From contig JANJGN010000012.1 of NCBI GenBank assembly GCA_026770705.1, forward strand, positions 98,084,001-98,148,000: 64,000 bases of DNA, given 5' to 3'. A program made the position numbers and the translations under genes. This document shows positions 11,812 to 51,300 of this stretch, one piece after another. Source of the stretch: Isurus oxyrinchus. Its lineage: Eukaryota. Within the stretch, counting starts at the first letter, position 1. Every line of letters starts with the position of its first letter. Under the pieces are notes generated by a model. The model worked only from the letters and a program-made list of their open reading frames with translations, was not told the DNA's origin and did no database searches.

Positions 11812-13306
11812 ATGGCTACCAAAGGCAGGAAACATGCTGCCCCAAATTTAGTGACGCCTCCCTCAGGCACTTACTGGAAGCAGTGGAGGTCCACTGTGAA
11901 GTCTTTTACCCCTGCTCTTGGCGAAGACCAGCAAGCAAGGTTACCAACCCAGCATGGGAGCTGGTGGCAGCGTGGTCAGCACCAATGCCCTGCAAAAGAG
12001 GAGAGCCACCCAGTGCAGGAAGAGGATAAATTATCTCCATCACTCTCCTTATCACACTCAACTCACAAGCTCATAAACCCATCACATAACCACAGGGATC
12101 TCACTCACTGCCAGGTAAAGGGACGTCACCATTCACTCTTTCACACACACCTTCACCTGCCCTATGATTGTGTCCTCATCCCATCCATGGCACCAATCAT
12201 CACCCATACATGCCAGGCATCCTTATCATTTGGCCTGGCAGATGTCCTGCTTGCAATCTCACCATCTGTAATCATGCAAGACAAGCTGGCACACAACAAA
12301 AGGGAGAGGTCACAGACTGGTGGAGGAATGCCTGACATCAAGGTTCTCAGGGAAGCAGCCGAGGGTGTCCACGTGCAAGTCCTTGACTCAAGCCCCAAAG
12401 ACGCCTCAGAAGAATCTGATGACACCCTTATTGAAGACCCATCATAGTGCTTACCCACACTCCCCACCAGTGCAGAAACACCCATCTTGGTGGGACCTAG
12501 TCCTAGAGTAGCCTTGGGGTCATAATCTGGTGAGCACATCTCACTTGATCCAAAGCAGGCAGCCTCAAGGACTTTGCAGGTTTCCAGCACTCTGAGGATT
12601 GCTGGAGGCTAGAAATCTGCTGAGTCTGAGTCAGAAGATGAGCAGAAGGACTCAGTCATACCTCAGTTGCTGGAACTGCAAAGGCAAGCTCGGAAACATC
12701 AGGAAGGGACGTCTTCTGCACTCCTCAAATTGGAAGGCATGATGGCGATGGAGGAGTCCACCTGCCTTTAGTCTGAGGTGACAGCACCAGCATTGTAATG
12801 CACCGAGGTCAACACTGGTAGGATGGCGGTTGCCATGGAGCCCTTGGTCCAGGACAATGGTCCTGCAATGCTGTATGGGCTAAAGTCCATCACTGACACC
12901 ATAGTTGACCTCCAACGTGAGAGTGGTGCAGGGCAGCTCGATCTCCAGTTACCTCTTTTCCTCAAGGAGTCAGCCAGGAGCCCCTGGGCTCCCATAGGGA
13001 GAAGGATCAGCAGGTGCACACCCCAGGGCCAATACACAGGTGACTCCAGGAGTGCCCAGCCCATCAAAACCCACTCTTCCTGTGACCTCAGCAGCTCCAG
13101 CTCCACAGTCCATGGATGGTGCCACTGCCACAAAGTGGGATCTCAAAAGCAGGCCAGGGCCCTCCAGGCCTTGGCCCTTCAGAGGACGCCCACCAAGGTC
13201 ATCACAGACAGGGCGTAGCAATCAGCAGGCTGCCTCCGCCTCCACTGTGGATGTCGGGGGAGCACCAATATGTAGCAGCAGTCTTAAGAAGGTTAAGAAG
13301 ATGTAA
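11812..13306 (+). pseudogene. Harbinger Myb/SANT-like DNA-binding protein (NAIF1-like), frameshifted
   Basis: Across frames MATKGRKHAAPKFSDASLRHLLEAVE...AWE...QCRKRIN; ends KKVKKM-TAA. Confidence 0.8.
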
Positions 13307-13310
13307 GCAA

Positions 13311-13383
13311 TGTTGCGGCCCGGTTTTGAACCAGGAACCTTACGCGTGTTAGGCAAACGTGATAACCACTACACCACAGAAAC
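13311..13383 (-). tRNA. tRNA-Val(AAC)-derived pseudogene
   Basis: GTTTCTGTGGTGTAGTGGTTATCACGTTTGCCTAACACGCGTAAGGTTCCTGGTTCAAAACCGGGCCGCAACA, 73 nt; close to vertebrate tRNA-Val-AAC; acceptor stem mismatched; no CCA. Confidence 0.85.
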
Positions 13384-14149
13384 AGTGCCAAAGATAGTTT
13401 CAAAATCATAATTTTAATAAAAAGTTGCACAGCCAGGGCATGGGTGGGTTAATCACTTGTACTTAATGTTTACTACTGTCAATAAACTCCCAAGAATGTC
13501 ACCTTGCCTATGGCTCCTTGTTCTGATGAGCAGTGTTCATGTCACTCAGATATGAAACCTTGGTTCCTGCACAAGATAAAGGCAGATGTCTCGGACTAGG
13601 GCCTCTTCTTTGTGTAGTGTGTAACCTTCAGACCAAAGTGATGGTCTGGCTTCACATCATTGGACACATTACTGATGCCTGCACCTGGATGTTGCTCATC
13701 ACTGCTGCCAGAATGTCATGGGCAGATATCACATAGTTCCGTCATTCTCTCTGTGGGCTCTCAGCACCTTTGAGGTGAGACTGGTCCCTCATCTCTTCTG
13801 CACCTGTGACTGGTGACACTGTGCTCCTGAAGGGGTCAGGTGATGAAGGCTGCCAAAGGCCCAGATGTGTTTAAAGTTTCACGGTTGCATCTCCATGATA
13901 TGACCCTGATCACAGAGCACAAGTGAGCTGCCCTCAGCCAGAAAAGAGTCAGGCATTCACAGAGGCAATGTGAAGATCTATGGAGTGTCCTCACTGCATA
14001 TCATCATCATCCTCCTGGAATCGAGTGACTATTATGACCTCCACTATGTCTCCATGACATGAGGTTGAGCACTGAGGGTATGTGCACTGCCATCAACACA
14101 CAGGAGTCAAACATTCACAGCTGCAAGGTGAGGACATCAGGACTGTCCT

Positions 14150-15180
14150 CACTGCATCTCGTCATCATCCTCCATGGATCTTGTATCAATGAGGGCCCAA
14201 GCGTGCCTGCCTCATCTGGCCAATGCAATGGACTCATCGCCAGCATCCTCACCTTCGAGGACCTCATCATCGCCAGCCACTTCGATGTCCTCCTCATTGG
14301 AGGATATGTGCAGATCCTCCATCTCCTCCTCAGCCAGGTCCTCCCCCACTTTGCAGCACCAGGTTGTTGAGCATGCAGCAAGCAACGATGATGTTTGACA
14401 TCCTCTGGTATTGTATTGCAGTGCTCCACCGGACCTGTTGAGGCACCAGAACCTTATTTTCAAAATGCCTATCGTTTGCTCCACCAAGGTCCGGGTTGTG
14501 GCATGAGCCTCGTTGTACTGTCGCTGTGCTGCAGCCTGAGGCCACTGCACGGGTGTCATCAGCCACGTCTTATGTGGGTAGCCCTTGACCCCGAGGAGCC
14601 AATCTTGCAGCGTCCCTGGAACCTGGAAGACATCAGGGATCTGAGACCTGCTAAGGATGCAGGAGTTGTGGATGCTCGCTGGGAATCATGTGAGACCTGC
14701 AGAATGTGTTTGTGGTGGTTTCACACAAGCTGAACATTCAGCGAGCTGAAGCCCTTGCAGTTGACGTAGTTGACTGCTTGTTGCCACAGAGATCTAAGTG
14801 TCACGTGAGTGCAGTCAATGGCATCCTGCACCTGTGGAAAACCTGAGATTTGCGCATATCTCAGCACTCTTGCTTCCTGGCTTTCCTGATCCCAGGCAAA
14901 ATGCACAAAGTTCTGTGCCTTCGCAAAGATGACATCCGTGACCTCCTGGATACACTTGTGCATGGAAGCTTGCAAGATCCAACACAGGTCATCTGTGGAG
15001 CCCTGGAAGGTGCCACTGGCATAAAAATTGAGCATTGTGGTCACTTTCATGGCCACTGGTAGTGGATGCCCTCTATGTCCCTGTGGCACCAAATCCTGCA
15101 GCAGGTGGCATATGTGACCAACCAGTTCCCTAGACATGCAGTCTTTGGTGACACTGGATCTCAGTCATTTGTAAGAATGA
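14150..15180 (-). pseudogene. Harbinger transposase (HARBI1-like, DDE_Tnp_4), frameshifted
   Basis: GFPQVQDAIDCTHV, YVNCKGFSSLNVQLV, YNEAHATTRTLVEQTIGILKIRFWCL, IIVACCMLNNL, acidic tail. Confidence 0.92.
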
Positions 15181-16233
15181 GAGGTGCAAATGTATTAAAA
15201 TGACATTCCTGATGCATGGCGGCGGGAAATGTGGCCCACCATTGACAATTGCTAACTGGTTTCACGATGGCATGGAACTGGCTTATGGCCTTCTCCCCCG
15301 CCCTCCGCCCGCCATGACGTCCGATGCCAACGGGGCTGGAAAATTCTGCCAGACACAAATTGTTTAGTTTCTTATCATTTCCCTATTCTCCATTATAAAT
15401 TCTCTTGTCTTCACCTGTAATAGACCCACATTTGTCCTTGCTAAACTTTTCCTTTTCACATACCTAAAAAAGATTTTACGATCTGCCTTTGTTACTCACT
15501 ATCTTGCATTCATATTCTCTTTTCCATTTCTTTATCAATTTTTTGGTCATTCTTTGCTAGATTCTAAATTGCTCCCAATCCTTGGGCTTACCACTTTTTC
15601 CTGGCAACCTTATAAGCTACTGCCTTTGATGTAATGGAATCTTTAACTTCTTTTGTTATCCACGATTAATTCATCTTTTCTGTTGCAGTTTTTTCTGTCT
15701 TAGAGGAATGTATATTTGCTGTAGACCATGTAATTGTTTTTTAAATACTAACCATGGCTGTCTACTGTCAAATCTTTTGCTGTATTTTCCCAATCCACCA
15801 TAGCCAACTTGCTCCTCAAACCTTCATAATTTCCTTTGTTCAGATTTAGGACCCTGGATTTAGAATGAATTTTATCACTTACAAACTTAACTTAAAACTC
15901 TGTCATGTTATGGTCATTATTTCCTATTGGCCCATTTACAGCAAGGTTATTGATTAGCCCCTCCTCATTAGATAATACTAAATCTAAAACAGCCAGATCC
16001 CTAGTTGGTTCCTCAATGTACTCCTCCAGAAACCTATCTTGTACACACTCTAGAAATTCATCCTGCATAGCATTAGTGCTAATTAGGTTTACCTAAACTA
16101 TATATAAATTGAAGTTGCCCTTTATTACTGTATTATCCTTGTTACATGGAGCTCTAATTTCCTGGTTTATACCAAGACTAACTTTACCACTACAGTTTGA
16201 TGGCCTGTAAACAACTCCCCACCAATGTTTGCT

Positions 16234-16390
16234 TTGGATTCCTCGACAATTCTGTGAAGAAGAGTCAAACAGACTTGAAACATTAACTCTAGTTTTTTTT
16301 CTCCACAGGTGCTATTATATCTGCTGAGTTTTTCAAGCATTTTCTGTTTTTGTTTCAGATTTCCAGTATCCGCAGTATTTTGCTTTTATT
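16234..16390 (+). mobile_element. Short PLE pseudo-LTR insertion
   Basis: 15-bp TSD CCACCAATGTTTGCT at 16219-16233 and 16391-16405. Confidence 0.85.
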
Positions 16391-18549
16391 CCACCAATGT
16401 TTGCTGTTTCTTGGCTCCACCTAAACGGATTCTACATCTTGATCCTTTGATCTAAGGTCCTCTCCCAACCCTGCCCCCGCCCCCACAACTGCCTATCCTT
16501 CCTGAATAATGAATACCCCTGAATATTCCGTTCCCAGTCCTGATCACCCTGTAACTACGTTTCTACAATCGCAATTAAATCATGCTCATTGATCTCTATT
16601 TTTGCTTTCAAGTCATCTCCCTTGTTTTGAAAGCTGCATGCATTTAGATAGAGTACCCTTAAATCCATCTTTTTAACATTATTCCATATTCTGATTCTAT
16701 CACACTACTTATACCCACTCTCATCTTATTGCAATGTCACATCTATCCCTCACAGCTGACCCTCCACAAATCTTGTCCTTTTTCCCTTTGCAAAACATTC
16801 CATAGCTCACACTCATAGGTTTCTTCTTTCTTTCCATGTAGTGGAAGAGAGCAGAGAACACCAGGGTAAGTCAGAGAAGTGGATGTAGCTGTCCAGTCAC
16901 AGCCACTTTGATAGCTGTAGGGGAGGAGGACTAGAGTTAAGCCTGGTGTTGACATGCCTGCAATTGGAGATGGCGAATTGGGGCCTTTCAGCTACCTTGT
17001 GACAGAACTAAATATCACACAGCCACGTGGCATGCTCACTCATGTTGACTTGATTTTAGCAGGCAATGAAAATTTATAATGTGTACAATAATGACTTAGA
17101 AGTCCCTCACCTTGTCAGTTCTAATTCATATCTTTTATCTACCAGAGGTCCTTCAAACAGCCTTCAGGGGATGGTATTGGTGGAGTATGAAGTCTTTCCT
17201 GAGGAGGTTATTCACTCTGAGGAAGCGCTGTCACAGGACTCATGTACATAATACAACATCACAGATATGCCCATTTTGGTGAGGCTGCCAAGACAGGTAG
17301 TTGACTTGTCACATGGTATACCACAAGTGAGCAGGAGCAGATGTTGGAAACAGTGACAGCAATGGTGAGTTCTTGTCAGAGGGCACAGAACGCTGCAAGC
17401 ATCCCCAGCTGGTTGTTGATGCTGAGCCTCAGGGACCATTGATGAAGTGGGCAACTCTGGACAAGTAGCAGAAAATGTGAGTTTCTGTCAGCATTTCTAA
17501 AGGCACTGCGCATCCTTGGAGAGGGATTAGAGGAGTCTGTCTCTAGCGTGAGTACCATGATATCTCAGGTCTTTGCGTTGATGTTCACCTCCATGGAAAG
17601 AGTGGCCATTCGCATGGTGCATCAGATGTAGCAGACAACTGAGTGCATGCAATGACCTGCCACCTTAGGCACGATGGAGGTAAGCCTCACCATGGTCATC
17701 CAGTTCCTTCATGAGGTGTAGCTCTTTGGCTGGCAGGAGGGAAGATAGAGAAAGCAGACATGGAAGTGGGGAGTATGGTCATAGTGCTTTTACTTCTGAT
17801 CCCTTGAACCTGCCCCCACCTCATTGAGTGCCCCTCCTGCTGCCTCCTGTAACAGTGACCGAATTTGCCTCTGAACATTGCATGTGGGACAGTCTTTGGG
17901 AGGCCTTCCCTTTCCCCAAAATCCAGAGAATGTCAGCCAAGAGCATTTGAGCAGTTAGAGCAGGGGAACAAACAGTTTGCCTCTAGCCACGAGGGGTGCA
18001 CCACATAGAAATAGTAGTAAAAAAAGAAGAAAAAGGCTTTGTAGTTGTACAGGAGGATTCACTTGGATGTTCAACACAGTATTATATTGTCGCATTTCTG
18101 TTTCATGTTTATTAACCATAAAATGTATTTGATTGCTTCAATTTTATGTCTTGCTTATTTTTACCTACCATTTGTGGTGACCTTGACAGTCACTGGCTAT
18201 GCCCAGCTAGTCCACTTGGCATGATGTCTTTTTTAAGGGGCTGCAAATGTCAGCACCCACCTGACTGTACCAGTGGCTCCCATACTGACCTGAAGGTTGA
18301 AGGGATGACTAGGTTACAGGCAATCATTCCAAGCTAAAAGTGATGACCTCCAAAGTATTTGCAATCACCTCCAAAACAGTGAGAACACACTGTTAGAGCA
18401 AGCCTTGTCAGCAAAAACCTTTCACTTTGGCAAATCCCATCAATCCCTGCTGTTGTTTCATCTTGTTTTCCCTCACGGGCTCCTAGAAGTTCAGGAAATT
18501 CGTGCTGACAGTTAAATTCAGAACCTTGTGTTAAATGAACAGATAATTA

Positions 18550-18870
18550 GTATTTTACATATTGAAACCATGTTGCTCTGGCTAACATTATTTTCTAAGT
18601 CCCTCGTAACCGCTTCCTTAATAATGGAATCCAGCATTTTCCTGGCGAATATTGTCAGGCTAACTTGCCTGTGGTTCGTTGTTATCTCTCTCCCTCCTTT
18701 CTTGAATAGCAGTGTTACATTTGTTACTTTCCAATCCACTGGGACAGCTTCAGAATATAGGGTGTTTTGAAAGATCACAACTAGTGGATCCACTATCTCG
18801 CAGCCATGTCTTTTAGATTCCTTGGATGTAGGTGATCAGGTCCAGAGGATTTTCAGCATTTAGCCCCTAA
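18550..18870 (-). mobile_element. CR1 LINE RT-upstream fragment
   Basis: ORF 18518-18793 DPLVVIFQN..VPVDWKVTNVTLLFKKGGRE..QVSLT. Confidence 0.85.
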
Positions 18871-21469: not shown

Positions 21470-21880
21470 CCAGGATCTATGGATGTTGTCTACGTGGACT
21501 TCCAGAATGCATTTGATAAGATTTGACACAAGATAATTAAAAAAAAATGTACACAATTGCAGGTAACCTTGTGACAAGGGTTGGCAATTAGTTGGGAGGC
21601 AGGAGATAAATGTATGCAAATCACTAAAAGCAGGTGCATAGGTAAGAAGGGCAATCTAATTGTCTAATGGAATAATGGCCTCTATCTCAATGGGGCTGGA
21701 ATACAAGGAAAAGTTATGCTTTTGTTATACAATGCCTTAATGAAACCCCAGGTGGATTGCTGCATTTCTTTGGGCATTGGTCCACAGGAAGCATATATTG
21801 CGCTCGGAGGGGTACAATGCAGATTCATCAAAATTGTACTGGATTTTAAAGGATTAAATTCAGGATGGATTGCATGACAT
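21470..21880 (+). mobile_element. Old CR1 fragment
   Basis: GATGTTGTCTACGTGGACTTCCAGAATGCATTTGATAAG encodes DVVYVDFQNAFDK. Confidence 0.7.
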
Positions 21881-22807: not shown

Positions 22808-22809
22808 AT

Positions 22810-25253: not shown

Positions 25254-28200
25254 GGGTGAAATTGTCCTAGATTTTCACTAAGTGCGGTAGGGAGCGGGTA
25301 AAATGATGTTCTACCACAATGGTGGCTTCTCACTCTGTATCATCCCAAACACACCGCGTTAATTATGCATTCCCGGGAAACATGCCATTTCCATAGTGGG
25401 CAGGCTGTCATTTGCCCGCCACGCCATCACTTCGCCACTTCACGCTAGGCGCCATATTTAAAGTGCAGCCATGCGTACAGTTCTCAGTGCTTCCAGGCCA
25501 GGACTGCTGTGGAAGACAGGATGGCCCCAAAAGGCAAAAAGAATGCAGCCGTCCCCCTGGTTTAGTGATGCGTCTCTTGAGTGCCTTTTGACTGCTGTGG
25601 AGGCTCGCCGTGATGTCTTCTACCCCCACTCTGGCCACAGGATGGCAGCTGAATCACCAATCCAGCATGGGAGGCGGTGGTCAGCACCAATGCCCTACAA
25701 AAGAGGACAGCCACCCAGTGCCACTACAGGATGAATGGTCTTATCCATTCTGCCAGGGTAACTCACTCTTCTCATCACTCTTAACTCACACACTCACAAA
25801 CCCCTTCACACATCCATAGGGATCTCACATCTCAAGGGACAGCACCACTAACTCTCACACACACCCTCACATCTCCATCAGGCTCATATCCTCTAGAGTT
25901 CATATCGTCATTCATGTCCATGGCGCCGCTCACCACACAAACATTCCACGCATTGCCATGTGTCCTGCTCACACTCTGTCCATCAGTTTCCATGGATGAG
26001 AAGTCTGCTCACAACAGCAGGGAGGGGTCCCAGATTGGTCGGGGGTGGGGGGTGTGGTGGGGAGGGTGGAGTGGCCCACATTTGGCTCCTCACTCACTTT
26101 GAGGAGTGTGCCATCGTACTGATTAGCGAGGACATGGACTGTGCCTGAAATGACGGTGAGGTCAGCAGCGAACACACTCGTGAGGATCCTGCACCACATC
26201 ATCCCTCACTCAATTAAAATGTGAGTGCTCTCTCTCCTGCTTGTAACTCTGCAGATATGCACTAATTATCTCTACCTTGGTTCACAGGGAGGCTTTGCCA
26301 AATGACTGACACCCTCAGCCACCCAGTCCCTCAGCTCCATCCAGGTCCTCATCTCCAGCTAAGAGGAAACCTCCCACCACCATTGAAAAGCTGGAAATAA
26401 GCAGCCTGGAAGATCCATCACAGTGCTTATCCACATGCTCCACCATCGCAGAGGCACACACCTCACTGGGACCTAGATCTAGAGAAGGCTCAGGTCCACA
26501 CTCTGTTGTTAACCCGCTGGACAGATATCCGCAGCAGGAGGAGGCAGGTTTGGCCAAGCTCCCCAGCACCTGGAGGACTGCTGGGGATCAGTCACTTGTG
26601 GTGATGAATCTCTGGATTTGGCCTTCCAACTCATCCTGGAGAAGCAGCAGAAGGCGTGGGAACATCATGCAGAGCTGTTGGAAGTCCTCAGCAGAGTGGC
26701 ACATGAGTCAGAGGAGTATTTCCACCTGCCCTCTGATGAAGTGGTGCTCACATGTCCACATGTGGAGGTCACCATGGGGAGGATGGTGGATGCCAATGGA
26801 GACCCTGGTCCAGCAGAACGCGGAGATGTGTGCAGACCTGCACTCCATCACAAGAGCTATGGGTGAGTTCCTGCAGTGGCAGCATGAGAGGGAAATGAGG
26901 CACCTTGACATCCTCCAGGTGCTTCTTCCCCTTAAGAAGTCAGACTATGGCCCCCCCAGCACCTGAATGGAGGAAGAGCGGCAGCCGGACACCTCTGGGT
27001 CATCCACTCAGGAATCTCAGATTGTGTCCTCTCCCTCTGAGTCCCCTTTTCCCCTTTGCCTGTGAGCTCCTCAACCTTGTCCTCTGTCACCGCAGAAGGA
27101 GCAGCTGGCCAACTAGTTATTCTGGAGAGAGAAGTGTGTGTGTGGCAGGGCCTTTCGGAGCCTCATGCAACCACTCTCCCATGCACGCAGATCCTTCACG
27201 TATCATACTCACTGCAATGTCCTGAGCATTTCTAATGCTGCCTGCTAGGGTTGTCCATCTGAGCTGACCTGTAGCATTGTCCAGCCAATGATCACTCTCC
27301 CATGCAGCACTTGATCTCACCCACCATGACTGATGTTTCATTTTCAATTTGGACAGCATGGTCTTGATTCGATTTTTCATATGCTCCCCCATCTTTTCCC
27401 CTCCCCCAGTCACCCATTTCCTCTCCCCCATCATTGTTGATTCCCCCGGCATCACCTTCCAACTCCCCTCCATGACCTACCAGCCACAACCCTTTTCCTT
27501 CAAGGATGTCCAGGTGAATGTGCATGTTCCCTTCCTTCCTGAAAATCCCACTCCCATCTACATTCACCTCCCCGACCTCCTCCTTTCCACTCCCAGGGTC
27601 CACGTCTGCCTCCGAGTCCCCACCAACCACCCTCACCGTCCCTTCTACAGCTACTGTCAAACACTCACCATCACACCCTACCACCTCACTCTGTCCTCAT
27701 CATTCTCACCATTCCCTCGTCCCATGTCCAGCCTCAGTTCGCTCCCAAGAGGTCGTCATGGACTCATCAGAGCCCTCCCTTGCACATTTACCTGGACATC
27801 TCCCCCTTTGGACCCCTTCCCCCATCCCCTGACTCCTCCCCCCCTTGATCCTCCACCACTGCCCCATCCCCCGACTCCACCCCCATTTAGCCCTTTTCCC
27901 TTCCTGACGCCTTCAAGCACCCTTAATTCTTTTGCCACCTTTAGTTCTTTCCCACTCCCAATTCTTTCCTCCAGCCTTACATCTTCGTCCAGCATTACTT
28001 CTTCCCCCTCCCTGACTTCTTCAGACATCCCTGCTTCTTCTTCCAGCCTTACTTTGTCCTCCACCCTTACTCCTTCCCTCTCTGCGACTCCTTTCTCCAA
28101 CTTTACTTCTTCCAGCCTTACTGCCTCCCCTCTCCGCACTCCTTCCTCCCCCGGACCCTCTCCCCTCTCTACACTCCTTCCTCCCCCTGGACTCCCTCCC

Positions 28201-30333: not shown

Positions 30334-31276
30334 TTGTAATGTTCCTGTATGTTTCTCGTGCTGAGTTCAGGGCAGCTCACTCTATTCATTAGATAGCTCA
30401 TGAAATGTGAGGATAAACTAAACTTACTGTGAATGAGGCAAAACCCCACACCTGTCACATTTCTTCAACATTCAGTTCCAGCTGGTGTTCTGATACTATG
30501 TCCTGAATGTATTGATCACATGGTCTGATTGCCACGTGTTGGCAATATGTTTATTGAAGGATGTCTTGACTCTTTAAAAATATTTATAATGGAGGCATTT
30601 CTTTGCACTATTTCAAGTTTCTGAAGTTGTATAATGATTATAAGCTGTTATAAGCTAATAATTATAAGCTGCTGTGTAACGATACATTAGTTCATTCACT
30701 TGCTCTGCTTTCCCCATTAATTATTTCTCATGTATATCTGGTTAACATTTGCCATCACAGAAACTGTGCTACCACTAAGCTTATTATATTCCTATGAGCT
30801 ATCATTTAATTCCTAATCTGTGTAACATCTATATACAGGCAATGACTAGGGTGATAGTTTTGTGTCTTTTAACTAGTGTCCTCAAAAGTGACTGTGGCAG
30901 CCAAAATGGTGCATTGGTTAGGTGATACTTATTCATGTGGTCACTTAAAAACAGTATTTTTATTGTATCTTTTATTGTAGAAAACCATACATTCACTCTG
31001 TTGACACACTGATAAAATTGACTGGTTATGTGACTAGTTATGTTGATGCTGTTCGGATGTTTGGCTTACTGTTCTGTGTGTTGTGTGAAAGGAAAGAAGG
31101 TAAGCATTCCCTTTGGATAGGATGGAAGATGCCCTACGAGCCTTACATTACCCACAAATTGTATTGGTTCAAGCTCCATCACACAGTGAAAACTAGGTAT
31201 GTTAGTCCAAAGCTGTCTATTCCTTCATTTAGTACAGATTCAAAGGTTAGGGGTCATTTGTGGTTTTGGTATGTAT

Positions 31277-40400: not shown

Positions 40401-43400
40401 TCCAGCTCAATATTTTGGCCACACACCAGGATCACTGCCACCACACCCCTATGTCAAATTTAAATGCCAGGTCAGAATGAATGGAGAATGGCGTGATTCA
40501 CAACTGCTTTTGAAAGTCGTGCAACTGGTCACCTTAACTTTGAGGGGAACTCGGAGGTGAGTTCACACATCTCAGCATAGCGTTGGCGAGGATCCCTGAT
40601 AGGAATGCAAAGTAGTGGTACCATAGATTCCGAGGGGGCAGTCACAGGCAAGTCTCCAAAGCAGTTTCTTTCTAGCTGGCTCTTAGTGTGGGGTTTTGGG
40701 GCAAGGGGGGTGCTAGGCAGCACTGACTGTAAGAAGGGAACCTCGGGGCAAGAGCTCCAATGTGTACGAAGAGTGTGGAAGGTTGCACAACAAACACATG
40801 ACTATGGGGGTTAGAAGTGTTGGCGGAGGGCGGGGGGGGAAAGAAAATAGCCACGCAAATGGAAAAACGGTTCAAAAATGCGGACTCTGCTGCAGCTGAG
40901 ACCGGTTAGCATCAGCTCAATTGACATGCTTGGAGTCAGTCTAGTGAAGCAATTATGTCTACTCAAGCCACACTAATTCCTGAAAGTGCCAATGATTGTT
41001 CCTCTAGTTTTAACACCTCGGGCGGAGACTTCAAAATCAACTGAATGGTATGGAGCAGCAGAACCATTGGACAACTGGATAAACTTGAGGATCCCCTTGA
41101 GAGAAGTGGACAGCACTCCCTGAGGGTATTATGTAGGTTATTGTTATGTAGGCATTGAACGTTCATCCTCCTGGTCCAACAAAACTGCGCAGCCCTTGAG
41201 TGCAGGTTAGGACAATGCTGGCATCTGAGAAGAGACCTCAGGATGCAGTCGAGTGGGTGAAGCTGTCATCACTCCGTCATCTGGGGCAGAATATTTCACT
41301 TGTCGGGCAGATGTGTACCCGACCCGAATGAGCATAAAATGATGCGCGATGACACCAGGCGGGCACCCCGACGTTATCTGCCCACCGGAAAATCCTAGCT
41401 GTGGTGTGGGGCAGAGGTGAGTGGGGTTGTGGTGAACCTTCATGCGCAGCAAACACTGGACAGACATTTGAGGGGGTCTTGAGACGCAGACGCGGGCGAT
41501 GACTTGAGCAAGAGTGGCGCTTAGGAGACAAATGCTGACGCTCATGTCTCTCTCTTTGATACTGCAGTGAAGAGACTATCAGGAAGGTGAAGCCCGGTGA
41601 TTTTGCTGTCCACGTCATTGCCGATAGGCAGTAGATAAAAAGGAGAAGAATGTGACAGAGACGTCTGCTCTCCAAAGGGAGGAGCAGAACCCTCAAAACA
41701 GTTGGGTGGCAAAGGCCTCCTCCGCACACAGCGGATGATCCCCACAGAGCCGTTGTTCGTAGGCACTGTGATGGTGCAAGTGCTACCTGCAGATTAGCGA
41801 GAACCAGTGTTGCCAATGCCTGTGCCTGTCAAGGTAACTGGTCACTCACATATGCCACCTTCTGCAGGATTTGGTGCCATGGGGACTTGGAGGGCATCCA
41901 CTGCCAAGGGCAGTGAAAGTTACCACCATGCTTAATTTCTACAGCAGTGGCTCCTCCCAGGGCTCCACTGGGTACCTATGTGGGATTTTGCAAGTCTCCA
42001 CAAATCTATCCAGGAGGTCACGACACCACTTTTGTCAAAGTACACAACTTTGACAGAGACCAGGTGAGCCAGTAAGCAAGGGTGCTGGGATTTGTTGAGA
42101 TTTCCAGTCTCCCACAGGTGCTGGGTGCCATTGACTGTACTCATGTGGCTCTAAAATCACCCTAGCACCAAGCAGTCCAGTATGTGAACCAAAGGCTTCC
42201 ATTTGTCCAATGTTCAGCTGGTCTGCGGCCATAATAAACGGATCATGCAGGTGTGTGCAAAATACCATGGAAGCATCCACAACTCGTACATTCTCAGCAG
42301 GCCTCAGATCTCTGACATCTTCCAGGGCCACACTGGCTGCAAGGTTGGCTTCTCGGGGACAAGGGATATAAAGGGATATGGCTGATGATGCCCGTGCGGC
42401 GGCCTCAGACATCTGCTGAGGGAATGTAAACGCGGCTCATACCATAACCTGGAGTTTGGTTGAGCACACTACTGGTACCCTGAAAGTGAGGTTCCAGTGC
42501 CTCAGTAGATCTGGCGGAGCACTGCAGTGCACTCCCCAGAGGGTGTCACGCATCATCGGGGCTTGCTGCGTGCTACACATCCTGGCGATGCAAAGTGGGT
42601 AGGACATGGATGATGGGAAGATGGATGTGCTGCACCTTCCCTCTGATGAGGAGGAAGTCAAAGAGGATGAGGGTGATGAGGTCCTGGAAGGTGAGGGTGC
42701 AGGTGATGAGGCCATTGCAGTGGCCAGATGAGGCAGGCGTGCTCGTGAGGCTCTCAATGCCACAAGATTCCAGAAGGATGACGATGAGCTGCAGTGAGGA
42801 CACTCCTGAGATCTTCACATTGCATCTGGGAACGTCTGCCACATGTTCGGCTGAGGGCAGCCCTTGTGAAGAGACTTATATCATGGAAATGTTGCTGAGA
42901 AACAGTGGCCACATGGACTTTAACAGCACTTGATCCTTTGACAGGCTTCATCACCTGTTCTTTTTAGCAGCAGACCTTCACCTGTCAGGAATGGTCTCGA
43001 GATGGGGGTGCAGTCCTGCCTCTAAGGTGCTGTGAGCACACAGAGAACATCGCGGATTCCTGTATGAGATTCTTGCAGCAAATGCAAGCCACACTGAGGC
43101 ACAGGCATCACTGATCTGGGGAGTGACTTTAAAGCCAGATAATTGCTGTGGTCAGGAGGTTACACACTGCACAGGGGAGAGGCCCTGGACTGTGACACTT
43201 GCCTTCATTTTGTGCTGGAACCAAGGTTTCACTTTTGATTGACACGAACATTGCTCATCATAACAAGGAGCCATAGACAAGGAGACATTCTTGGGAGTGT
43301 ATTTACAATTGTGAACATTAAGTACAAGTGATTAACACTCATGGCCACTTTGTATAATTACATTGTCTTGAAGTGGTTATGGTACTGGGTTTGTAACCCC

Positions 43401-44960
43401 AAGATCAAGAGTTCAAATCTCACAATGGCGAACTATGAAACAATGTAACTTCATCTGAGACAGGTGGAAATGGGTTTGTACTCGAAAGAAATCAAGAGTT
43501 CAAATCTCACAATGGCAATCTATGAAATAATGTAACTTCATCTGAATAGCAACAGATGGAAATATGTTTGTACTCAAAAGAGATACAAATTAGGAACACT
43601 TTAGAGGCCTTCCGTGCTCGGTGGGCACCGCGGGGACTGGGGTGTTTTGTTGACCCCTTTAATCACATTTTGATTTAAAGTTTGTAAGTTTCCTTTAAAC
43701 TTTGTTCTTGGTTTTACAGCTGACCTGAATTAGGGGCTGTGCCTGATTTGTCCCGATTTTGTTGATTTGGTTTTCATTTAAAAGATTATCAAGAGTTCAA
43801 ATCTCACAATGGCAAAACTATGAAACAATGTAACTTCATCTGAAACAGATGGAAATGGGTTTGTACTCGAAAGAGTATCAAGAGTTCAAATCTCACAATG
43901 GCAAACTATGAAACAATGTAACTTCATCTGAATAAACAGATGGAAATGGGTTTGTACTCGAAAAGTTACATTGTCTTGACCTTTCTATCCCTGCTGCTAC
44001 TTCTTGGTGCATCCCTGACATCCACAGCAGAGGTGGAAGCAGTCTGTTGACTGCTATGCCCTGTTGTCTGTGATGTCATTGGTGGGTATCCCCTAGAGGG
44101 CCGAGACCTGGAGGGGCCCGGCCTGCTTTCACTGTCCTGCTATGTGGCAGCGCTGGAGCTGCTGGTGTCACAGGAAAAGGGGTTTGGGATTGGCCAGTCA
44201 CTCCTTGAGATACCTGGGTGGATGACCCCGGGGTGTGCACCTGCTGATTCTCCTTCCTACGGGTGCTTGAGGGCCCCTGGCTGACTCCATGAGAGGAAGG
44301 GGCAGCTGGAGGGAGCTCAAGGTGTCCCCACACACTCTTGCATAGACACTGATGGATGCCAGCAAGTGCCCTACTGATGGAGTGTAGCTTCTGCACTAAT
44401 GCAGGACCAATGTCCTGGACCAAGGTCTCCACGGCAGCAGCCACCCTACCAGTGTTGACATCGGTGTGTTGGTATGCCGGCGCTATCACTTTGGTCTGAA
44501 GCCAGACAGACTCTTCCATTGTGCCTTGCAATTTGAAGTGTGCAGCAGACATCCCTTCCTAATGTTCCCGAGCTTGTCTTTGCAGCTCCAGCAACTGAGA
44601 TATCACTGAGTCCAGAGGCTCCTTATCTGAACCGGACTCAGCAGATTCCTGGCCTCCAGCAATTTTCCAAGTGCCGGCACTCTGGGTTGACCCTGCTTCC
44701 TCCAGCTGTGGATCAGACATGGTGATTTGCTCACCAGATTGTGACCCTGAGACTACTCTAGAACTGGGTCCAACTGAGGCATGTCTCTGTGCTGGTGGGG
44801 TGTGGGTGAACGCTGTGACAGGTCTTCAATGTTGGTGTCTTCCTTTGGAGAGTGCTAGCCCTGTGTAGGGGTAGCCTTTAAATATGGGACCCAGATTATT
44901 GAAACTCTGAGGTCATGGTGGGGCAGCAAAATCCGAGTCTGCCCCTCCAGCGATCCAATG
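40400..44960. mobile_element. PIF/Harbinger copy D (transposase + at about 41590-42800; Myb remnant - at about 43360-44860)
   Basis: GAIDCTHV near 42125, NVQLVCGHNKRIMQVCAKYHGSIHNSYIL, GDKG, VEHTTGTLKVRFQC; 41200-41270 matches copy E 50010-50090; a mini-MITE sits at 41284-41400. Confidence 0.85.
43372..43965 (+). mobile_element. tRNA-derived tandem SINE / Tx1-like LINE tail chimera
   Basis: 14-bp TSD TTACATTGTCTTGA at 43358-43371 and 43966-43979; A-box-like AGTGGTTATGG, B-box GAGTTCAAATC; four 87-100-bp units; central NTLEAFRARWAPRGLGCFVDPFNHILI* at 43595-43678. Confidence 0.8.
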
Positions 44961-45486
44961 TAAAACCTGTGCCTCTGATTTTTTTTCACAATGTTCCACA
45001 CGATATGGCGTGAAATTCCATCAGTGATGTCAGCAGATCCAGTGCCGATTTCTCCACCTGATATAGGACTTTGCCAATTTAAGGGAAGATCTGGCCATCG
45101 AAATTCAATGTGCATTAGGCGAATGTGAAAGGGTTCCATCGACTTTCCATTGTATTATGATGGTCCCTCACCAAAACTAGACTTGGTGAATTTCAAGATG
45201 TCAAATAACAACACAAGATGTGTAATCAACACACCAAATTTTTTGGTAAAAGGACTTTGAACTTATAAATGTCACATGGTGAGGAAGCCATTTTGTTATC
45301 TGCTTTTAAGAAGCTGTACCATCAAAAAACCATCAGATCATCTGCGAGTCATCTAAGCAGCCAAGATAATAAAGACCAACGCCTTTAAAATGAGAGAAGG
45401 GCTCCCCACCCTCCAACTAATACTTTGTAATAACATTCCCATCTATTTCTGGCCTCTGACGTCAATCCAACCAGAGTGCACACTGT

Positions 45487-46227
45487 GATCATGATTTTAC
45501 AGGACTCCAGGGAGTTTTCTGGGAGGCAGGTTGGATGAGAAAGATGGGTGGTAAAATCTGGTTGGACGGCAGGGGTGGAGTGTCTATCGCCTTCCTGCTG
45601 CAGCTGGAATTTTACCAGTAGCAGGGAAGGCAGCAGACCACCCAACCATCTTTAGGCTAATTTACGGCCTTAAGTTAAGGAACGCTTAAGGGTCTCTTTC
45701 TGCTGTTGCTGGTATATTACCAGTGGCAATGGGCTCAGACATGTGGGAAGTCACCAGGTATGCCCTGGAAGCCTCCCTGCAGGCTCAGGAATGCTCTCCT
45801 TTTCAGACACGCTGTGGCCCATGGAGGGTCCCTGCAGTGGCAACGGCAAATCCCACCCCCCTGCCCTAGTGACCTGTTCCCCTCCCAACCAGCAAGGCTT
45901 GCTTGATTTGAATGTTGCTTGCCATGGCCACTTGTCTGCACTTAGGGCATCCATCATGGGGGCTGTTCAGGACTGGCTGCAGTTCCAGCAGTGGCCACCA
46001 CTGTCAGTGGTACTGATGGGACTGAAGAGCTGCCAGTCCTCCTTTTGACCAGAAGCACTTGGGGACTGGGAAAACCTATATTAGAAGAGTGTAAGCCATG
46101 ACTGCAGGCAATTAGCTGCCTGATCAACGTAAAGTTCAGTAAGGACTTTGTGACTGATCAAGGCAGCATTGCCCTAGATGTAACAGCTGGTGGATGAGGC
46201 CACCATCGCCCTGTAAAATGCCAACTT
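45487..46227. mobile_element. Harbinger-type MITE (family 2-like)
   Basis: ATTTTACAGG ... CCTGTAAAAT inverted ends; internal similarity to 31277-32100. Confidence 0.55.
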
Positions 46228-46559
46228 GTAGGCTTTATTACCATTAAATATTGTGAGGATTATTCAGATTGTCCTCCATATTTTATACAGAAGATCAACA
46301 GAAACCTCCAAGAAATTATATAAACAGTGTTTACTCACCATCTTTTTAAAAAATTGTGTTAACAATATTCCTGCAAGTATTTAAGAGTGTTAGCATGGTT
46401 TAGTTTGATTGATATGCCTGAATATAGGTTTACCACAAATATAGGCATTTAAATTAGAATGTCCAAATCATCACCTATGAGTAACCCAATTTTAAATAAC
46501 TGAAAATAGCTTTAAAACGTTATACAGAAGTATTCACTGGCTTCATTCGTGTTTTTTTT

Positions 46560-46920
46560 AATGCGTTCAAGGGATGTGGGCATCACTGGATGGCCATCAT
46601 TTATTGCCCATCCCTAATTGCTCTTGTTCAGATGGCGTTTAAGAGTCAACTACATTGCTGTGGGTCTGGAGTCACATGTAGGCCAGACCAGGTAAGGTCA
46701 GCTGATTTTCTCCCCTAAAGGACATTAGTGAACCAGGTGGGTTTTTACAACAATGTTCAATGGTTTTGTGATCATCATCAGACCTTTAATTCCAGATTTT
46801 TATTGAATTCAAATTTTGCCAAATGCCATGGTGGGATTCCAACCCAGGTCCTCAGAGTATTACCCTGGGTCTCTGAAATACCAGTCCAGTGGCAATAGCG
46901 CTATGCTACCACCTCCCCCA
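46560..46920 (-). mobile_element. tRNA-derived SINE with LINE-derived tail
   Basis: Minus-strand head GGGAGGTGGTAGCATAGCG..GGGTTGGAATCCC; tail GCAATTAGGGATGGGCAATAAATG shared with the LINE at 1434-1995. Confidence 0.8.
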
Positions 46921-47429
46921 AACAGTACAGTGTACAGTAATCAGTTTCTTAGTAAACTGTAAAGGAAAATAATGCTTCTTAGTGTCCTTGCACCTAAAAA
47001 AAGCTTAATTTTTAAGATCAATCCTGACGACCAACATAACTAGCAGCAACTCATAATAGTGATCAATTCACCCTCTGGCTCTGGCCAATTTAACATAATG
47101 TTCCTTAAATTAGCACAAAGGATCACCAAAACACAATTTGTGCTGGTTGCAATTTGCATTTGAAATTCATCAATATTGCATGCTGGTTTGACCAATTTTG
47201 CTGAAAAAAATAGTGCAACCTAGCAGAAACTCAATATCACGATCTTTTCCATGTCTATTCAATAGTTTTGTAGATAGGGGGAAGTAGCCAAAGAGTATTA
47301 CTATTCAAAATAATAAATATAAATTAAGGCCCTTGTTATCAATTGAGGAATAATTTACTGACAGTCAAACAATGGTTCTTATAATCTTATCTGACTAGTA
47401 TTTGTTTGTATTCTGTCTTGCTTTAAGCA

Positions 47430-48368
47430 CCATCTGAGGTGCTGTTCCTCCAGTTTGCGTTGAGCTTCACTGGAACAATGCAGCAGGCCAAGGACGGACA
47501 TGTGGGCATGAGAGCAGGGTGGAGTGTTAACATGGCAAGCGACAGGGAGGTCTGGGTAATGCTTGCGGACAGACTGAAGGTGTTCTGCAAAGCGGTCGCC
47601 CAGTCTGTGTTTGGTCTCTCCAGTGTAGAGGAAACCGCATTGGGAGCAACGAATGCAGTAGACTAAATTGAGGGAAGTGCAAGTGAAATGCTGCTTTACT
47701 TGAAAGGAGTGTTTGGGCCCTTGGACGGTGAGGAGAGGGGAAGTAAAGGGGCAGGTGTTGCACCTTCTGCGGTTGCATGGGAAGGTGCCTGCTGCTTTGT
47801 TCCAGTGAAGGTCAACACAAACTGGAGGAACAGCACCTCATCTTCCGACTACGAACTTTACAGCCTTCTGGATTGAATATTTTCAACAATTTTAGATCAT
47901 GAACTCTCTCCTCCATTCCCACCCCCTTTCCGATACCTCTCCTTTTTTTCCCAATAATTTATATAGATTTTTCTTTTCCCACCTATTTCCATTATTTTTA
48001 AAAGTATTTCCATCCATTGTTTTATCTCTACCTTTTAGCCTTTTTTGATTCCTTCACCCCACCCCATCCCCACTAAGGCTATCTGTACCTTGCTTGTCCT
48101 GCTTTCTACCCTTAATTAGCACATTCCTTGCATAATATCGCCACCTTCAACACCTCTTTGTCCTTTTGTCTATGACATCTTTAGGCTATCTCCACCTATC
48201 ACTGGCCCTCTATCCAGCTCTACTTGTCCCGTCCCCCCTTAAACCAGCTTATATTTCACCTCTCTTCTACTTTTGCTTGGTTTGTTGAAGAGTCATATGG
48301 ACTCGAAACGTTAACTATGTTCCTCTTCGCAGATGCTGCCAGACCTGCTGAGTTTTTCCAGGTATTTT
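47430..48368. mobile_element. PLE 3' fragment with inverted GIY-YIG segment
   Basis: 47430-47790 (-) matches 56140-56480; 47790-48368 (+) matches the PLE 3' end and pseudo-LTR. Confidence 0.85.
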
Positions 48369-51300
48369 TAAGAAGATGTAATTGCACAGTTGGGCACTTG
48401 TACAGAATGTTGATGATTGTAAATACAAATCATGTCTTCATGTCTATAGCTCCTTGTTATGATGAGCAGTGTTTGTGGAAATCAAATGTAAAACCTTGGT
48501 TCCTGCACAAACTGAAGGCAAGTGTTGCAGTCCAGGGACACTCCCCTGTGCAGTGCGTAACCTCCTGACCACAGTGATTGGCCCATTTCAGAGTCACTCT
48601 CCAGATCAGTGATGCTTGCACCTTGATGTGGATTGCTGTAAGAATCTCATACCCAAGCGTCACAGGGTTCCGTGATATTCTCTGTGAGGTCTCAGCATCT
48701 TAGAGGTGGGACTGCCCCCCCCGCCATCTCGACACCATTCCTGACAGGTGCAGGTGTGGTGCTGAAGGGAACATGGAGCCACGATGATGTGTGACACCCT
48801 CTGGGGAGTGTACTGCAGTTCTCCACCAGATCTGATGAGGAACCTCATTTTTCAGGATCCCAATGGTGTGCTCCACCAAAGTCTGGGTTGCAGCATGAGC
48901 CTCGTTGTACCTTCTCTCAGCAGGAGTCTGAGGCCGCCACACGGGCGTAATCAGCCACATCCGATGTAGGTATCTTTTGTCCACGAAGAGCCAACCCTGC
49001 AGCCTGTGTTTTCCCTGGAAGATGTCAGGGATCTGAGACCTGCTGAGGATGTAAGAGTCATGGACGCTTCCATGGTATCTTGCACACACCTACATGATCT
49101 TTTTGTTGTGGTCGCAGACAGCTGAACATTGAGAGTGTGGAAGACTTTGCGGTTCACATACTGGGCTGCTTGTTGTCAGGGAGATTTAAGAGCCACGTAA
49201 GTCCAGTCAATGGCACCCTGCGGGAATCCGTAATCCTGTGGTAATCTCAGCAAATCCCAGCGCTCTTGTTTCCTGGCTCACCTGATCCCTGTCAAAACTG
49301 ACAAAGTTGTGTACCTTGGCAAAAGTAGCATCCATGACCTCTTTGATGCATTTGTGGGTGGATGCTTGTGAGATCCTGCACAGGTTCCCAGTGGATCCCT
49401 GGAAGGAACCACTGCCATAGAAATTGAGCACGGCAGTAAGTTTCACTGCCACTGGCAGTGGATGTCCTCCGAGTCCCCATGGCGCCAAATCCTGCAGAAG
49501 GTGGCATATGTGAGTGACCAGATCCCTTGACATGTGCAATTGTCGGTGACACTGGTTATTACTCATCTGCAGGTAGCACATGCACTATCTATAGACCCTG
49601 CGTTTAGTGAGGCACCTGTGAATAACAGCTGTCGGGGGTTTAACCTCTGTGTGTGGAGGATGCCATGCCACCCCTTGAACTTGAGAGTTCTGCTCCTGCC
49701 TTTGGTGAGCTAGGTGCCCTTGTCGCATTCTTCTCCTTCTTCTTTCCTGCCTATAGCAATTAGGCGAGATCACCAGACTCCATCTTCCTGATAGCCTCCT
49801 TATTGCAGTATAAAAGAGAGAGACACAAGGGTCAGCAATTGTCTCCTAAGGACCACTCTTGGTCAGGATATCACCTGCGGTTGCCTCTCAAGGCCCCTTA
49901 ATGCATGCCAGAGAGTCCAGTCCACACATCGACGCTCAGTGTTTTGTGTGCATGATGGCTCAACATGCCCACACCCAGCACTGGCCCACACCACATGACT
50001 GAGTGTTGACAGCTTTGGCCACTCGACTGCATTCTGAACTTTCACATTAGGCAAAGCCATTGTCCTAACCTGCATTCTAAGGCTTCAAGGTTTGCTAGTG
50101 CCAAGAGGGTGACTCTTCAATGTCAACATAAACATAATGCAAGAGATTAGGAGCTCATCCCTCCGTCAGTGTTCCATGGCCACCTTTCCCAAAGGGAACC
50201 TCAAGCTTGGCCAGTTGCCCAATAGTTCTGTAGCACCATAGCTCTCATTCGATTTTGAAGTGTATGCAGGATGGGGTTAAAAGTAGAGGAGCAGCATTGG
50301 CACTCTCAGGAATTAGTGCTGCTTGAGTGGGTACTGTTGTTTGACTATCCTCACTCTAGGCATGTCAATGGAGTCAAGCTAGATGGTCTCAGCTGCAGAA
50401 GAGTGTTCAACTTCGACATGTTTTTCCATTTGCCTGGCTGTTTTCTTACCCCCATACCCTGACATGTCTTAGTGTGCAACCTTCATTCTGTGCTGCCATC
50501 ACCCCCCCACCCCCCCCCCACCCCCCCATGCACTGTTGCCCTAGCCCTGAGGCCCCATCTCTCCAGCACTGTTGCCCTAGCCCTGAGGTCCCCTTCTCTC
50601 CGGCACTTTTACCCTAGCCCTGAGTCCCCATCTCTCTGGCACTGTTGCCCGAGCCCTGAGGTTCCATTCTCTCTGGCACTGTTGCCCTAGCCCTGAGACC
50701 CCATCTCTCCGGCACTGTTGCTCTAGCCTTGAGTCCCCGTCTCTCCGACACTGTTGCCTTAGCCCTGAGTCCCCATCTCTCTGGCACTGTTGCCCAAGCC
50801 CTAAGGTCCCCTTCTCTCCAGCACTGTTGCCCTAGCTCTGAGTCCCCATCTCTCCGGCACTGTTGCCCTAGCCCTGAGGCTCCCTTCTCTCCATCATTGT
50901 TGCCTGAGCCCTGAGGTTCCAATCTCCCTGGCACTATTGCCCGAGGCCTGAGGCTCCCTTCTCTCTGGCACTGTTGCCCTATCCCTGAGGTCCCCTTCTC
51001 TCTAGCACTGTTGGCTGAGCCCTGGCACTACAAGCTAGCCATAAAGAAGCTGCTGTGGTGACTTGCCTGTGAAATCCCTGAATCCACTTCCTTGCATTGA
51101 GATCCTCGTGAGCACTGTGCTAAATTGTGTGCATTCAGTAAAGGCAGTTGTAAATCATACTGTTTAAAATCATGCCAATGTGGGATTAAAATTTGATGTG
51201 GGGGGTGATTCCAGAGTGTGGAAACAAGAATGAATTGCAAATGTATTTAAATTAAATTCCTGATGCCCGATGACGGGAAATGTGGTTCTCCATTTATCAG

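Follow-up and report, generated by a model that had tools for sequence, protein, structure and literature searches.

A Tx1 LINE, its partner SINE and a few cellular RNAs insert at one base of the Myb stop codon in a shark Harbinger transposon

Targeting of one mobile element by another is a known habit of frog and crocodilian Tx1 families. Tx1L (YTX2) of Xenopus laevis inserts into Tx1D, a non-autonomous piggyBac DNA transposon, with AGTT just past the cut (PMC1950540, PMC4494074), and the Xenopus Tx1 endonuclease nicks 5′ of 5′-AGTT (PMC1950540). The crocodilian pair Tx1-Mar and SINEU (Kojima 2015, PMC4494074) consists of a LINE and a trans-mobilised SINE that share one DNA-transposon target in Mariner-N4_AMi, with tandem insertions sandwiching the duplication, a SINE preference that ranges from weak to strong, and small-RNA heads at 5′ ends. 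The alligator family Tx1-9_AMi is reported to favour Harbinger elements, sitting roughly 300 bp in from the 5′ end in three families of them. The system described here, from the shark Isurus oxyrinchus, is a further case and resembles each of these. Like Tx1L it has a DNA-transposon target with AGTT past the cut, the empty Harbinger site reading GATGT-AGTT; unlike Tx1L, its target is the Myb stop of a two-gene Harbinger, a partner SINE and cellular RNAs share the site, and young families are looser. In contrast to the crocodilian system, the shark SINE has a tRNA-like head and only a 12-nt 3′ hairpin in common with its LINE, Harbinger is the element hit, some young ORF2 copies are intact, and the youngest LINE carries a SINE 3′ half. 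Compared by description only, the shark site is some 2 kb in from the left terminus of its Harbinger, at a different place from that of Tx1-9_AMi. Since Tx1 families of frogs and crocodilians already behave in this way, the surprise is limited; new here are the choice of a stop codon as target and the existence of a youngest, intact family that has a SINE 3′ half and a second junction type. We found no report of this Tx1/Harbinger system in the literature searched, a scope that lay outside Repbase, Dfam and most subscription papers.

The window analyzed is a stretch of 64,000 nucleotides (GCA_026770705.1, contig JANJGN010000012.1, positions 98,084,001 to 98,148,000) that contains three Harbinger copies, A, D and E, interrupted at or beside the site (table 1). 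The family has the PIF/Harbinger gene set in a convergent layout, with a DDE_Tnp_4 transposase (PF13359: copy A, L127) and a Myb/SANT-like gene (PF13873: L124). The empty target is TTAAGAAGATGTA|G, in which the bar marks an insertion point within the TAG stop; inserts are antisense to Myb (every labelled insert at the site has minus-strand orientation), and their first base restores a TAA stop. The native Myb stop is mostly TAG, with G in 81/95 aligned letters, and in a Myb-side frame composed of the column-commonest codons of other copies the sole stop from −1479 to the site is the site triplet. The Myb domain exon is on the upstream side and an AATAAA lies 55 bp 3′ of the site; the long last exon of the Myb gene has no protein relative at near lengths, and a splice connection would join the Myb exon to the hit stop. 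The site is the Myb stop proper and not mid-spacer, the likely transposase stop being about 980 bp away. The 14-mers named in the original prediction are exact, TTAAGAAGATGTAA at 13293-13306 and 48368-48381 and TCAAGACAATGTAA twice on the minus strand at 43358-43371 and 43966-43979. That prediction took them as a 14-bp site ending in the Myb stop; the triplet is indeed the Myb-frame stop, but the target is a 13-mer cut within it. The tRNA-Val insert of copy A does adjoin the 14-mer, whose last A (13306) is already the first base of the insert, and the duplication flanking the insert of copy D is exact on both sides but 13 bp long. Target duplications are mostly 8-14 bp, or zero.

Table 1. Positions of Harbinger copies, target sites and inserts in the window
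Feature	Position	Strand	Basis
Harbinger copy A, degraded	11533..15187	+ (Myb +, transposase −)	blastn to natural copy
Myb-domain exon of copy A	11826-12037		tblastn
DDE_Tnp_4 in copy A	14212-14685	−	PF13359 match
13-bp Tx1 target of copy A; insertion after 13305, within Myb stop	13293..13305	+	frame test
118-bp tRNA-Val insert of copy A	13306..13423	−	ARAGORN, Rfam tRNA
Myb-side Harbinger fragment, unhit; stops ~230 bp short of site	25254..27050	+	
Harbinger copy D	40829..44955	−	
Copy D target-site duplication, transposase side	43359..43371	−	13 bp exact
Copy D target-site duplication, Myb side	43967..43979	−	13 bp exact
595-bp SINE/Tx1 array in copy D	43372..43966	+	
Array: tRNA-like SINE minus first ~23 nt	43372-43489		
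Array: SINE 3′ half	43490-43583		
Array: 3′ end of youngest Tx1 family	43597-43787		
Array: two additional SINE 3′ halves	43788-43876, 43877-43966		
Penelope-like fragment, internally inverted, broken within T-rich end, adjoining copy E	47435..48369	+	self-blast to 55597-56494
Harbinger copy E, without Myb side; begins at left edge of target	48368..50527	+	

Breakpoints in 104 other site-spanning copies of the Harbinger family are distributed non-uniformly, which bears out the cleavage/insertion hotspot that had been proposed from the three window copies. Within 15 bp of the site there are 24 breakpoints against 0.93 expected from the rate in the rest of the element (26-fold enrichment, Poisson P ~1e-25), and the second-busiest 31-bp window of the same scan has 5. 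Tx1 LINE or partner-SINE sequence is present in 21/24 of the at-site events, and 21 of the 25 breakpoints that contain such sequence fall at the site. Two further at-site events, an H2B copy and RPS15 fused to Tx1, are compatible with Tx1 machinery, and a 244-bp insert at −4 in L016 has no relation to the Tx1/SINE system. Across 112 Harbinger copies, none of 14 Penelope breakpoints is at the site. Given the 21/24 Tx1/SINE events and the absence of Penelope, the cause is most likely one sequence-preferring Tx1 system and not an open site. Exact matches across the genome number 667 for filled junctions and 597 for the empty form, with 0 for reversed controls. The hotspot is genome-wide, yet the window does not hold three unrelated inserts as had been claimed: those of copies A and D start at the same base and in the same orientation as Tx1/SINE 3′ ends elsewhere. 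Two other peaks were set aside: the peak near +797 in the first scan was treated as a deletion in the reference copy and masked (52/53 events at 760-830 match copy A sequence), and the +1892 peak was masked as a reference-copy deletion solely on its constant size of ~60-70 bp.

The ORF2 sequence places the LINE in the Tx1 clade, with 49% identity to Xenopus Tx1 ORF2 over 99% of its length (E=0). In 20/20 fetched copies an ORF2 of 1303 aa is preceded by a 537-749-aa open frame; ORF2 contains an APE endonuclease (Exo_endo_phos), RVT_1 and a weak zf-RVT match, and its frame is intact in 25/114 scored matches. The LINE shows the marks of target-primed reverse transcription, namely a fixed 3′ end, 5′ truncation and target duplication. 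Site preference is strict among old copies and looser among young ones. Old long copies, chosen by endonuclease-region DNA, lie where Harbinger is broken at the site in 11/12 cases. Loci chosen by a Harbinger-type 3′ end are at the site in 16/29 cases, and 82/272 exact ends of this type are preceded by a perfect 11-mer of the site; the remaining 13/29 are off-site, with pre-junction likeness limited to (T)GTA. By the Kojima measure (>20% of flanks in one repeat), old copies and Harbinger-type ends are above the threshold, whereas the young SINE (3/29 loci ending at the Harbinger site) and the youngest LINE family (2/29) are below it with respect to Harbinger. Among young Harbinger-type LINEs, we found no copy that was both full-length and intact in its endonuclease. 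The head of the SINE has A/B-box-like motifs by eye, and Rfam gives no tRNA match for L005 at E≤0.01. SINE and LINE have the same target and the same duplication, and both 3′ ends have the form ACTC-loop-GAGT, a predicted hairpin of variable loop with the ~12 nt in common.

Filled sites have a fixed 3′ junction after ...GATGTA, a single orientation, variable duplications, 5′ truncation and tandem arrays whose units are separated by the duplication. We consider it very probable that the Tx1 LINE, the tRNA-like SINE and a few cellular RNAs insert at this one base by means of a LINE endonuclease nick and reverse transcription, insertion recurring at the Myb stop likely because the endonuclease of Tx1 itself cuts there. 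The endonuclease would nick the Myb strand at TA|G or T|AG (the position is uncertain by one base), and target-primed reverse transcription from the nick would copy whatever RNA the enzyme carries, with a second nick no more than about 13 bp from the first. Insertion would regenerate the site, allowing arrays to grow. The SINE, the pre-tRNA-Val of copy A and H2B mRNA would use the machinery in trans, and template switching could account for the U6 and RPS15 fusions. Three cellular RNAs share this base and strand: an H2B copy in L205, U6 placed 5′ of a SINE in L033, and RPS15 placed 5′ of a truncated Tx1 in L034, the RPS15 frame being recognised by a PDB search and missed by Pfam. U6 chimeras are reportedly made by L1 as well. 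The shark copies resemble these chimeras and processed pseudogenes in the fusion of U6 or an mRNA 5′ of a LINE or SINE 3′ part and in the retrocopying of housekeeping RNAs; unlike L1 retrocopies, they cluster at a single sequence-defined site. A preprint (bioRxiv 10.64898/2026.06.26.734816) lists Tx1 as a source of retrocopies outside mammals.

The insert of copy A has a tRNA-Val body (13311-13383), a short T-ending 3′ trailer without CCA and a 41-nt 5′ leader without a match. It has no duplication, a state also seen for at-site SINEs (e.g., L056, L198, and L067), and its junction is unique in the genome. Comparison with genomic tRNA-Val genes, the best of which are 89% alike, revealed no source for the tRNA or its leader. 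The insert is probably a pre-tRNA-Val retrocopy made by Tx1 machinery; it is assigned by position and strand, because it lacks a LINE/SINE tail, a duplication and a source tRNA gene.

An unlikely variant retains the same machinery with a loose endonuclease and has the site set mainly by pairing of an RNA 3′ extension (UAC..., or AUCA... in the youngest family) with the nicked primer, the extension stemming from read-through into each element's own duplication. Consistent with such pairing, TAC follows 47/49 Harbinger-type LINE ends and ATC follows 71/71 youngest-family ends, both on and off target, and the SINE is followed by one or the other (TA- in 217/307, ATC in 78/307). Two TAC-tailed copies sit within the youngest clade, and the endonuclease beta-hairpin loop is mostly the same in old and youngest copies; however, 13 endonuclease columns differ between them, several close to DNA-facing loops. 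Pairing of 3-4 bases is, moreover, insufficient for 30-90% occupancy of a single 11-13-mer in 5 Gb, and RNAs without such a tail (tRNA-Val, H2B) reach the same base. Off-target pre-insertion sites, judged by eye, favour G/T past the cut, as in the AGTT of Tx1L. We prefer cleavage by a sequence-preferring Tx1 endonuclease.

The youngest LINE family has 2,734 exact 3′ ends, followed by the SINE half in 1,679. It uses a second junction, TGAT|; the families with the two junction types are siblings whose 3′ ends are 95-97% alike. The 5′ start of the youngest family retains an 11-nt piece of the earlier Harbinger duplication, and its RNA appears to bear ATCA... directly past its own end. We tentatively suggest, with considerable doubt, that a Tx1 lineage changed hosts: after long, strict use of the Myb stop, one of its copies may have inserted into the B-box of the partner SINE, taken the SINE 3′ half as a tail and given rise to the dominant intact family. 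A search at ≤2 mismatches for the predicted intermediate, a Harbinger flank joined to the youngest-family 5′ start, found none. The simpler proposal that the youngest LINE merely targets the SINE is weakened by 41 5′-truncated copies that precede the SINE half. By script, six have a match of at least 7 bases to the TAC-type duplication directly upstream, which reads as LINE body and tail moved as one unit, four have the SINE 5′ half upstream, and 31 are undecided; by eye, about 19 of these youngest copies come after a SINE end and TAC-type spacer. If target choice tracks the RNA 3′ extension, the intact copies would be a natural test of whether RNA can steer an APE-type LINE to a new target. 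What began as a three-copy coincidence is a defined, genome-wide, target-specific retrotransposon system, and its intact ORF2 copies, dated strict-to-loose series, partner SINE and two junction types make the gain, relaxation or switch of APE-type LINE specificity (endonuclease loops versus RNA-primer pairing) directly testable.

That the spot is generically fragile or tolerant of insertions, and open to any element or break, is largely refuted and very improbable. Such a view would fit the break of copy E at the target's left edge, the unrelated insert of L016, and the rebuilding of the stop by any insert that starts with A, which would make insertions neutral; but insertions are precise to a single base and in one orientation, dead old Harbinger copies offer no selection to filter tolerated sites, and Penelope is rejected as a member of the hotspot by its breakpoint count and by the junction of copy E. 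Copy E does start directly past a Penelope end, as first described, and this real junction has a single match genome-wide; both T's of TTAAG are common to the Penelope T-run, and nothing left of a Tx1 or SINE lies upstream in the window. Copy E likely reflects an independent Penelope insertion or deletion whose ends met at a TT microhomology. In the stretch that the Penelope-like fragment matches (55597-56494), an ORF at 56075-57889 has RVT_1 and weak GIY-YIG matches. The alternative first reading, a tolerated cargo site, is apt only insofar as the stop is rebuilt, and a cut within a stop codon that the insert restores is a neat choice of safe haven; Harbinger does not carry the inserts as cargo, because filled copies hold different inserts and the SINEs are much younger than their flanks. 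Spread of a few early insertions by Harbinger transposition or segmental duplication is scarcely credible: duplicate loci exist (L047-L049; L228 and L271, which share a single insertion), but from copy to copy the inserts vary in what they contain, in size (12 to >2,700 bp) and in how long their duplications are, SINE inserts are on average 96% alike against 82% for Harbinger flanks (21 pairs, 7 filled copies), and Harbinger copies 95-97% alike are in mixed states (L214, L220, L221, and L233 empty; L228 with a LINE; L229 with a SINE; L230 with SINE and LINE).

Among the joints listed from contigs of four public runs, none skips the copy D insert, a result uninformative on polymorphism; SINE and LINE pieces are present in these contigs (two coded organisms, four studies). 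The left ends of many Harbinger copies start with GGG, and one copy, L293, has an inverted match of the end.

Across the Harbinger family, breakpoints are concentrated at the cut point inside the Myb-gene stop codon (the site, from which signed positions are counted). Own-genome searches of the 4.98 Gb source assembly with four different element parts as queries gave 116 loci beyond the window's own; removing 4 that repeated another copy or were tandem duplicates left 112, and 104 of these span the site. With breakpoints mapped against a natural reference copy, two peaks attributed to reference deletions masked, and inserts below 40 bp (L054, L058, L195) left out, the 15 bp to either side of the site contain 24 breakpoints against 0.93 expected from 76 background events, and the busiest 31-bp window elsewhere in Harbinger holds 5. 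The original prediction, drawn from copies A, D, and E in the window, had proposed a cleavage/insertion hotspot or a tolerated cargo site, to be checked by such an enrichment test. At-site breakpoints number 9 of 29, 5 of 27, 5 of 23, and 5 of 25 copies by query; the first query contained the filled-type (insert-bearing) copy A, and the other three were clear of the site. About one quarter of copies are hit, and at that rate two hits among the three copies of one window are no surprise. Some kept copies, possibly segmental duplicates, are 95-97% alike yet differ in filled or empty state. Exact filled junctions number 667 across the genome and exact empty-form sites 597, with right-hand target-site duplications counted among the empty forms; reversed controls gave 0.

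Assignment to Harbinger is based on DDE_Tnp_4 and Myb_DNA-bind_5 domain matches; besides the three tabulated copies, one further Myb-side fragment in the window ends short of the site. The 14-mers lie exactly where they had been placed, and their final triplet is a stop, the sole one in its frame from -1479 to the site when judged by the per-column commonest letter across the other Harbinger copies; by the same letters, the other two frames hold 8 and 15 stops within 900 bp. AATAAA occurs at +55, and upstream on the same strand as the stop is the Myb domain exon, presumably spliced to the stop codon at the site. The distance from the site to the probable transposase stop is some 980 bp. Most native Myb stops are TAG, and the empty site accordingly reads TTAAGAAGATGTA to the left of the cut and GTTGCAC to its right; the last A of the 14-mer in copy A is an insert base that remakes the stop. 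At Harbinger left ends, a frequent pattern is AGAC or ACAC followed by three variable bases and then GGG (L035, L126, L127, L197, L218, and others), which suggests that Harbinger itself has a target preference; the pattern may resemble the zebrafish Harbinger3_DR target.

Features in the window and in loci (L numbers) and a contig (G000:C26) of the same genome
Feature	Location	Strand	Remarks
Harbinger copy A	window 11533-15187	+	degraded, reaches site
Harbinger copy D	window 40829-44955	-	degraded, reaches site
Harbinger copy E	window 48368-50527	+	degraded, reaches site
Tandem repeat	window 50530-51024		period ~73 bp, directly at copy E right end
U6atac-like sequence	window 31078-31165	+	50.5 bits, exceeds Rfam gathering score
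Penelope-like element	window 55597-58372		604-aa open frame, RVT_1, weak GIY-YIG
RPS15 mRNA copy	L034:1-1492		at site, fused 5' to truncated Tx1
H2B mRNA copy	L205:2686-3115		at site, oriented as LINE/SINE inserts
Full U6	L033:1722-1828		at site, 5' of SINE
244-bp insert	L016:1656-1907		at -4, CT-repeat end, unrelated to Tx1/SINE system
tRNA-Val gene array (L262-L266)	G000:C26 ~30.40-30.55 Mb		long tandem array, period near 5 kb

LINE or SINE sequence is contained in 21 of the 24 at-site events, the remaining three being L034, L205, and L016, and all labelled LINE/SINE inserts share one junction and one strand, starting with ACTC right after GATGTA and lying antisense to Myb. Duplications range from 0-2 bp up to 16 bp, many being 8-14 bp (31 loci, a few rows of which are mis-anchored). 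Arrays of several elements with the duplication between members are common, and the element adjacent to the Myb side is usually the most diverged, which would be expected if insertion restores an intact site beyond the new element. The copy D insert consists of a SINE, a LINE 3' end, and SINE 3' halves flanked by 13-bp duplications. In copy A the insert is a tRNA-Val body (best genomic genes 89% alike) with no CCA, a T-ending trailer, a leader without match, and no duplication; despite this last point, its position and strand make it quite probably a Tx1-made copy of a pre-tRNA. U6 copies also adjoin SINE/LINE arrays in L078 and L165. Arrays of tandem 5'-truncated LINE copies, at the site or off target, share a truncation point and duplication variant (L109, L112, L108, L117, L244, L251), yet their copies are ~3-20% divergent over their length; L112 and L251 show a near-identical first 100 bp and a diverged remainder, which suggests that new LINE copies make their 5' junction via homology to the neighboring old copy.

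The LINE has two ORFs, ORF1 of 714 aa and ORF2 of 1303 aa, the latter with APE endonuclease and RT and 49% identical to Xenopus Tx1 ORF2. Its nearest partial protein matches are shark proteins (65-68% identity), which together with the repeat content make a cartilaginous fish the likely source. The SINE is ~140 bp with A- and B-box-like motifs recognized by eye, and both elements end in ACTC-loop-GAGT, a predicted hairpin of variable loop. Directly observed are the fixed junction and strand, the duplications, 5' truncation, arrays, the remade stop, and which elements are involved. Following established TPRT of APE-type LINEs, the Myb strand would be nicked inside TAG, priming would occur on the 3' hairpin of the RNA, the second nick would fall no more than about 13 bp from the first, and the SINE and cellular RNAs would use the LINE machinery in trans. 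The Tx1L cut is reported to have 5'-AGTT downstream (PMC1950540); the Harbinger site reads GATGT-AGTT. Known cases are Tx1L in Tx1D, Tx1-Mar with SINEU in Mariner-N4_AMi, and Tx1-9_AMi, which is inserted in the 5' regions of Harbinger (PMC4494074, whose supplements may bear on the last comparison); among the papers searched, none reports this site or lineage. This is a target-specific Tx1 system of a type already known; its target is new, and its LINE and SINE are unusually entangled.

From the element side, the endonuclease-region DNA of an old copy, itself taken from the site, gave 39 non-self matches, of which 16 (the best 14 and two others) were fetched. Twelve of these are old-type, and 11 of the 12 sit where Harbinger breaks off at the site to one or both sides; between the old LINE and the break, L297 has 1.5 kb of DNA of no assigned identity, and in L283 the LINE is in Harbinger at another place. 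The younger Harbinger-type 3' end (mostly followed by TAC) is at the site in 16 of 29 loci (two being one array), the young SINE in 3 of 29, and the youngest LINE family in 2 of 29. Genome-wide, 82 of 272 exact Harbinger-type ends directly follow a perfect 11-mer of the site; at off-target insertions, all that remains of it ahead of the junction is (T)GTA. The preference was thus formerly strict and has since loosened.

Many copies of the youngest family are intact (25 of 114 scored matches, 20 of 20 fetched). Its 3' end is 95-97% like that of the young Harbinger-type family; its own end is AAAAGATT, and in all 71 cases the next bases are ATC: the SINE 3' (B-box) half in 52, its own 5' end in 4, and other DNA in 15. 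Genome-wide, the SINE half follows 1,679 of 2,734 exact ends. The 5' start contains ATCAAGAGTT together with CATCTTCTTAA, an 11-nt piece of the Harbinger duplication; the predicted intermediate junction, Harbinger flank to this start, was not found in the genome with up to 2 mismatches allowed. In a midpoint-rooted tree built from 58 3' segments (overlapping loci enter some copies more than once; no clade test), TAC-type copies occupy long basal branches and ATC-type copies short nested ones, with two TAC-tailed copies within the ATC group. A new nick preference and RNA-primer pairing are both candidate origins of the second junction. Old copies differ from the youngest at 13 endonuclease columns, among them positions 18, 22, 157, 164, and 168, near loops aligning with DNA-facing parts of the L1 endonuclease; the endonuclease hairpin loop is mostly alike. 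A role of R155 is described (PMC1950540). The differences may be drift, as the old copies are decayed and distant. A clean switch to the SINE target is weakened by the missing intermediate junction and by many truncated copies with the SINE half behind a TAC-type duplication, so that LINE body and SINE half were often mobilized together in a single RNA. The SINE 5' half, with one common variant base, lies upstream of three full-length young copies (L161, L178, L275), as if a SINE-half/LINE/SINE-half composite were spreading. The youngest 3' end is also joined three times (L150, L175, L250) to one ORF2-internal place reading ATCATCCAC, near position 4787 of the reference copy, either a self-insertion or a junction that recurs.

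Copy E, counted as a third insertion, drops out: its junction occurs once in the genome, and 0 of 14 Penelope breakpoints among the 112 Harbinger copies lie at the site. The Penelope-like piece ends inside its T-run, sharing TT with the target's first two bases. Conceivably, copy E was once a filled site from which everything left of the right-hand duplication was later lost; upstream in the window there is no remnant of a LINE or SINE. The tabulated Penelope-like element carries an inverted segment of ~500 bp at 95% identity.
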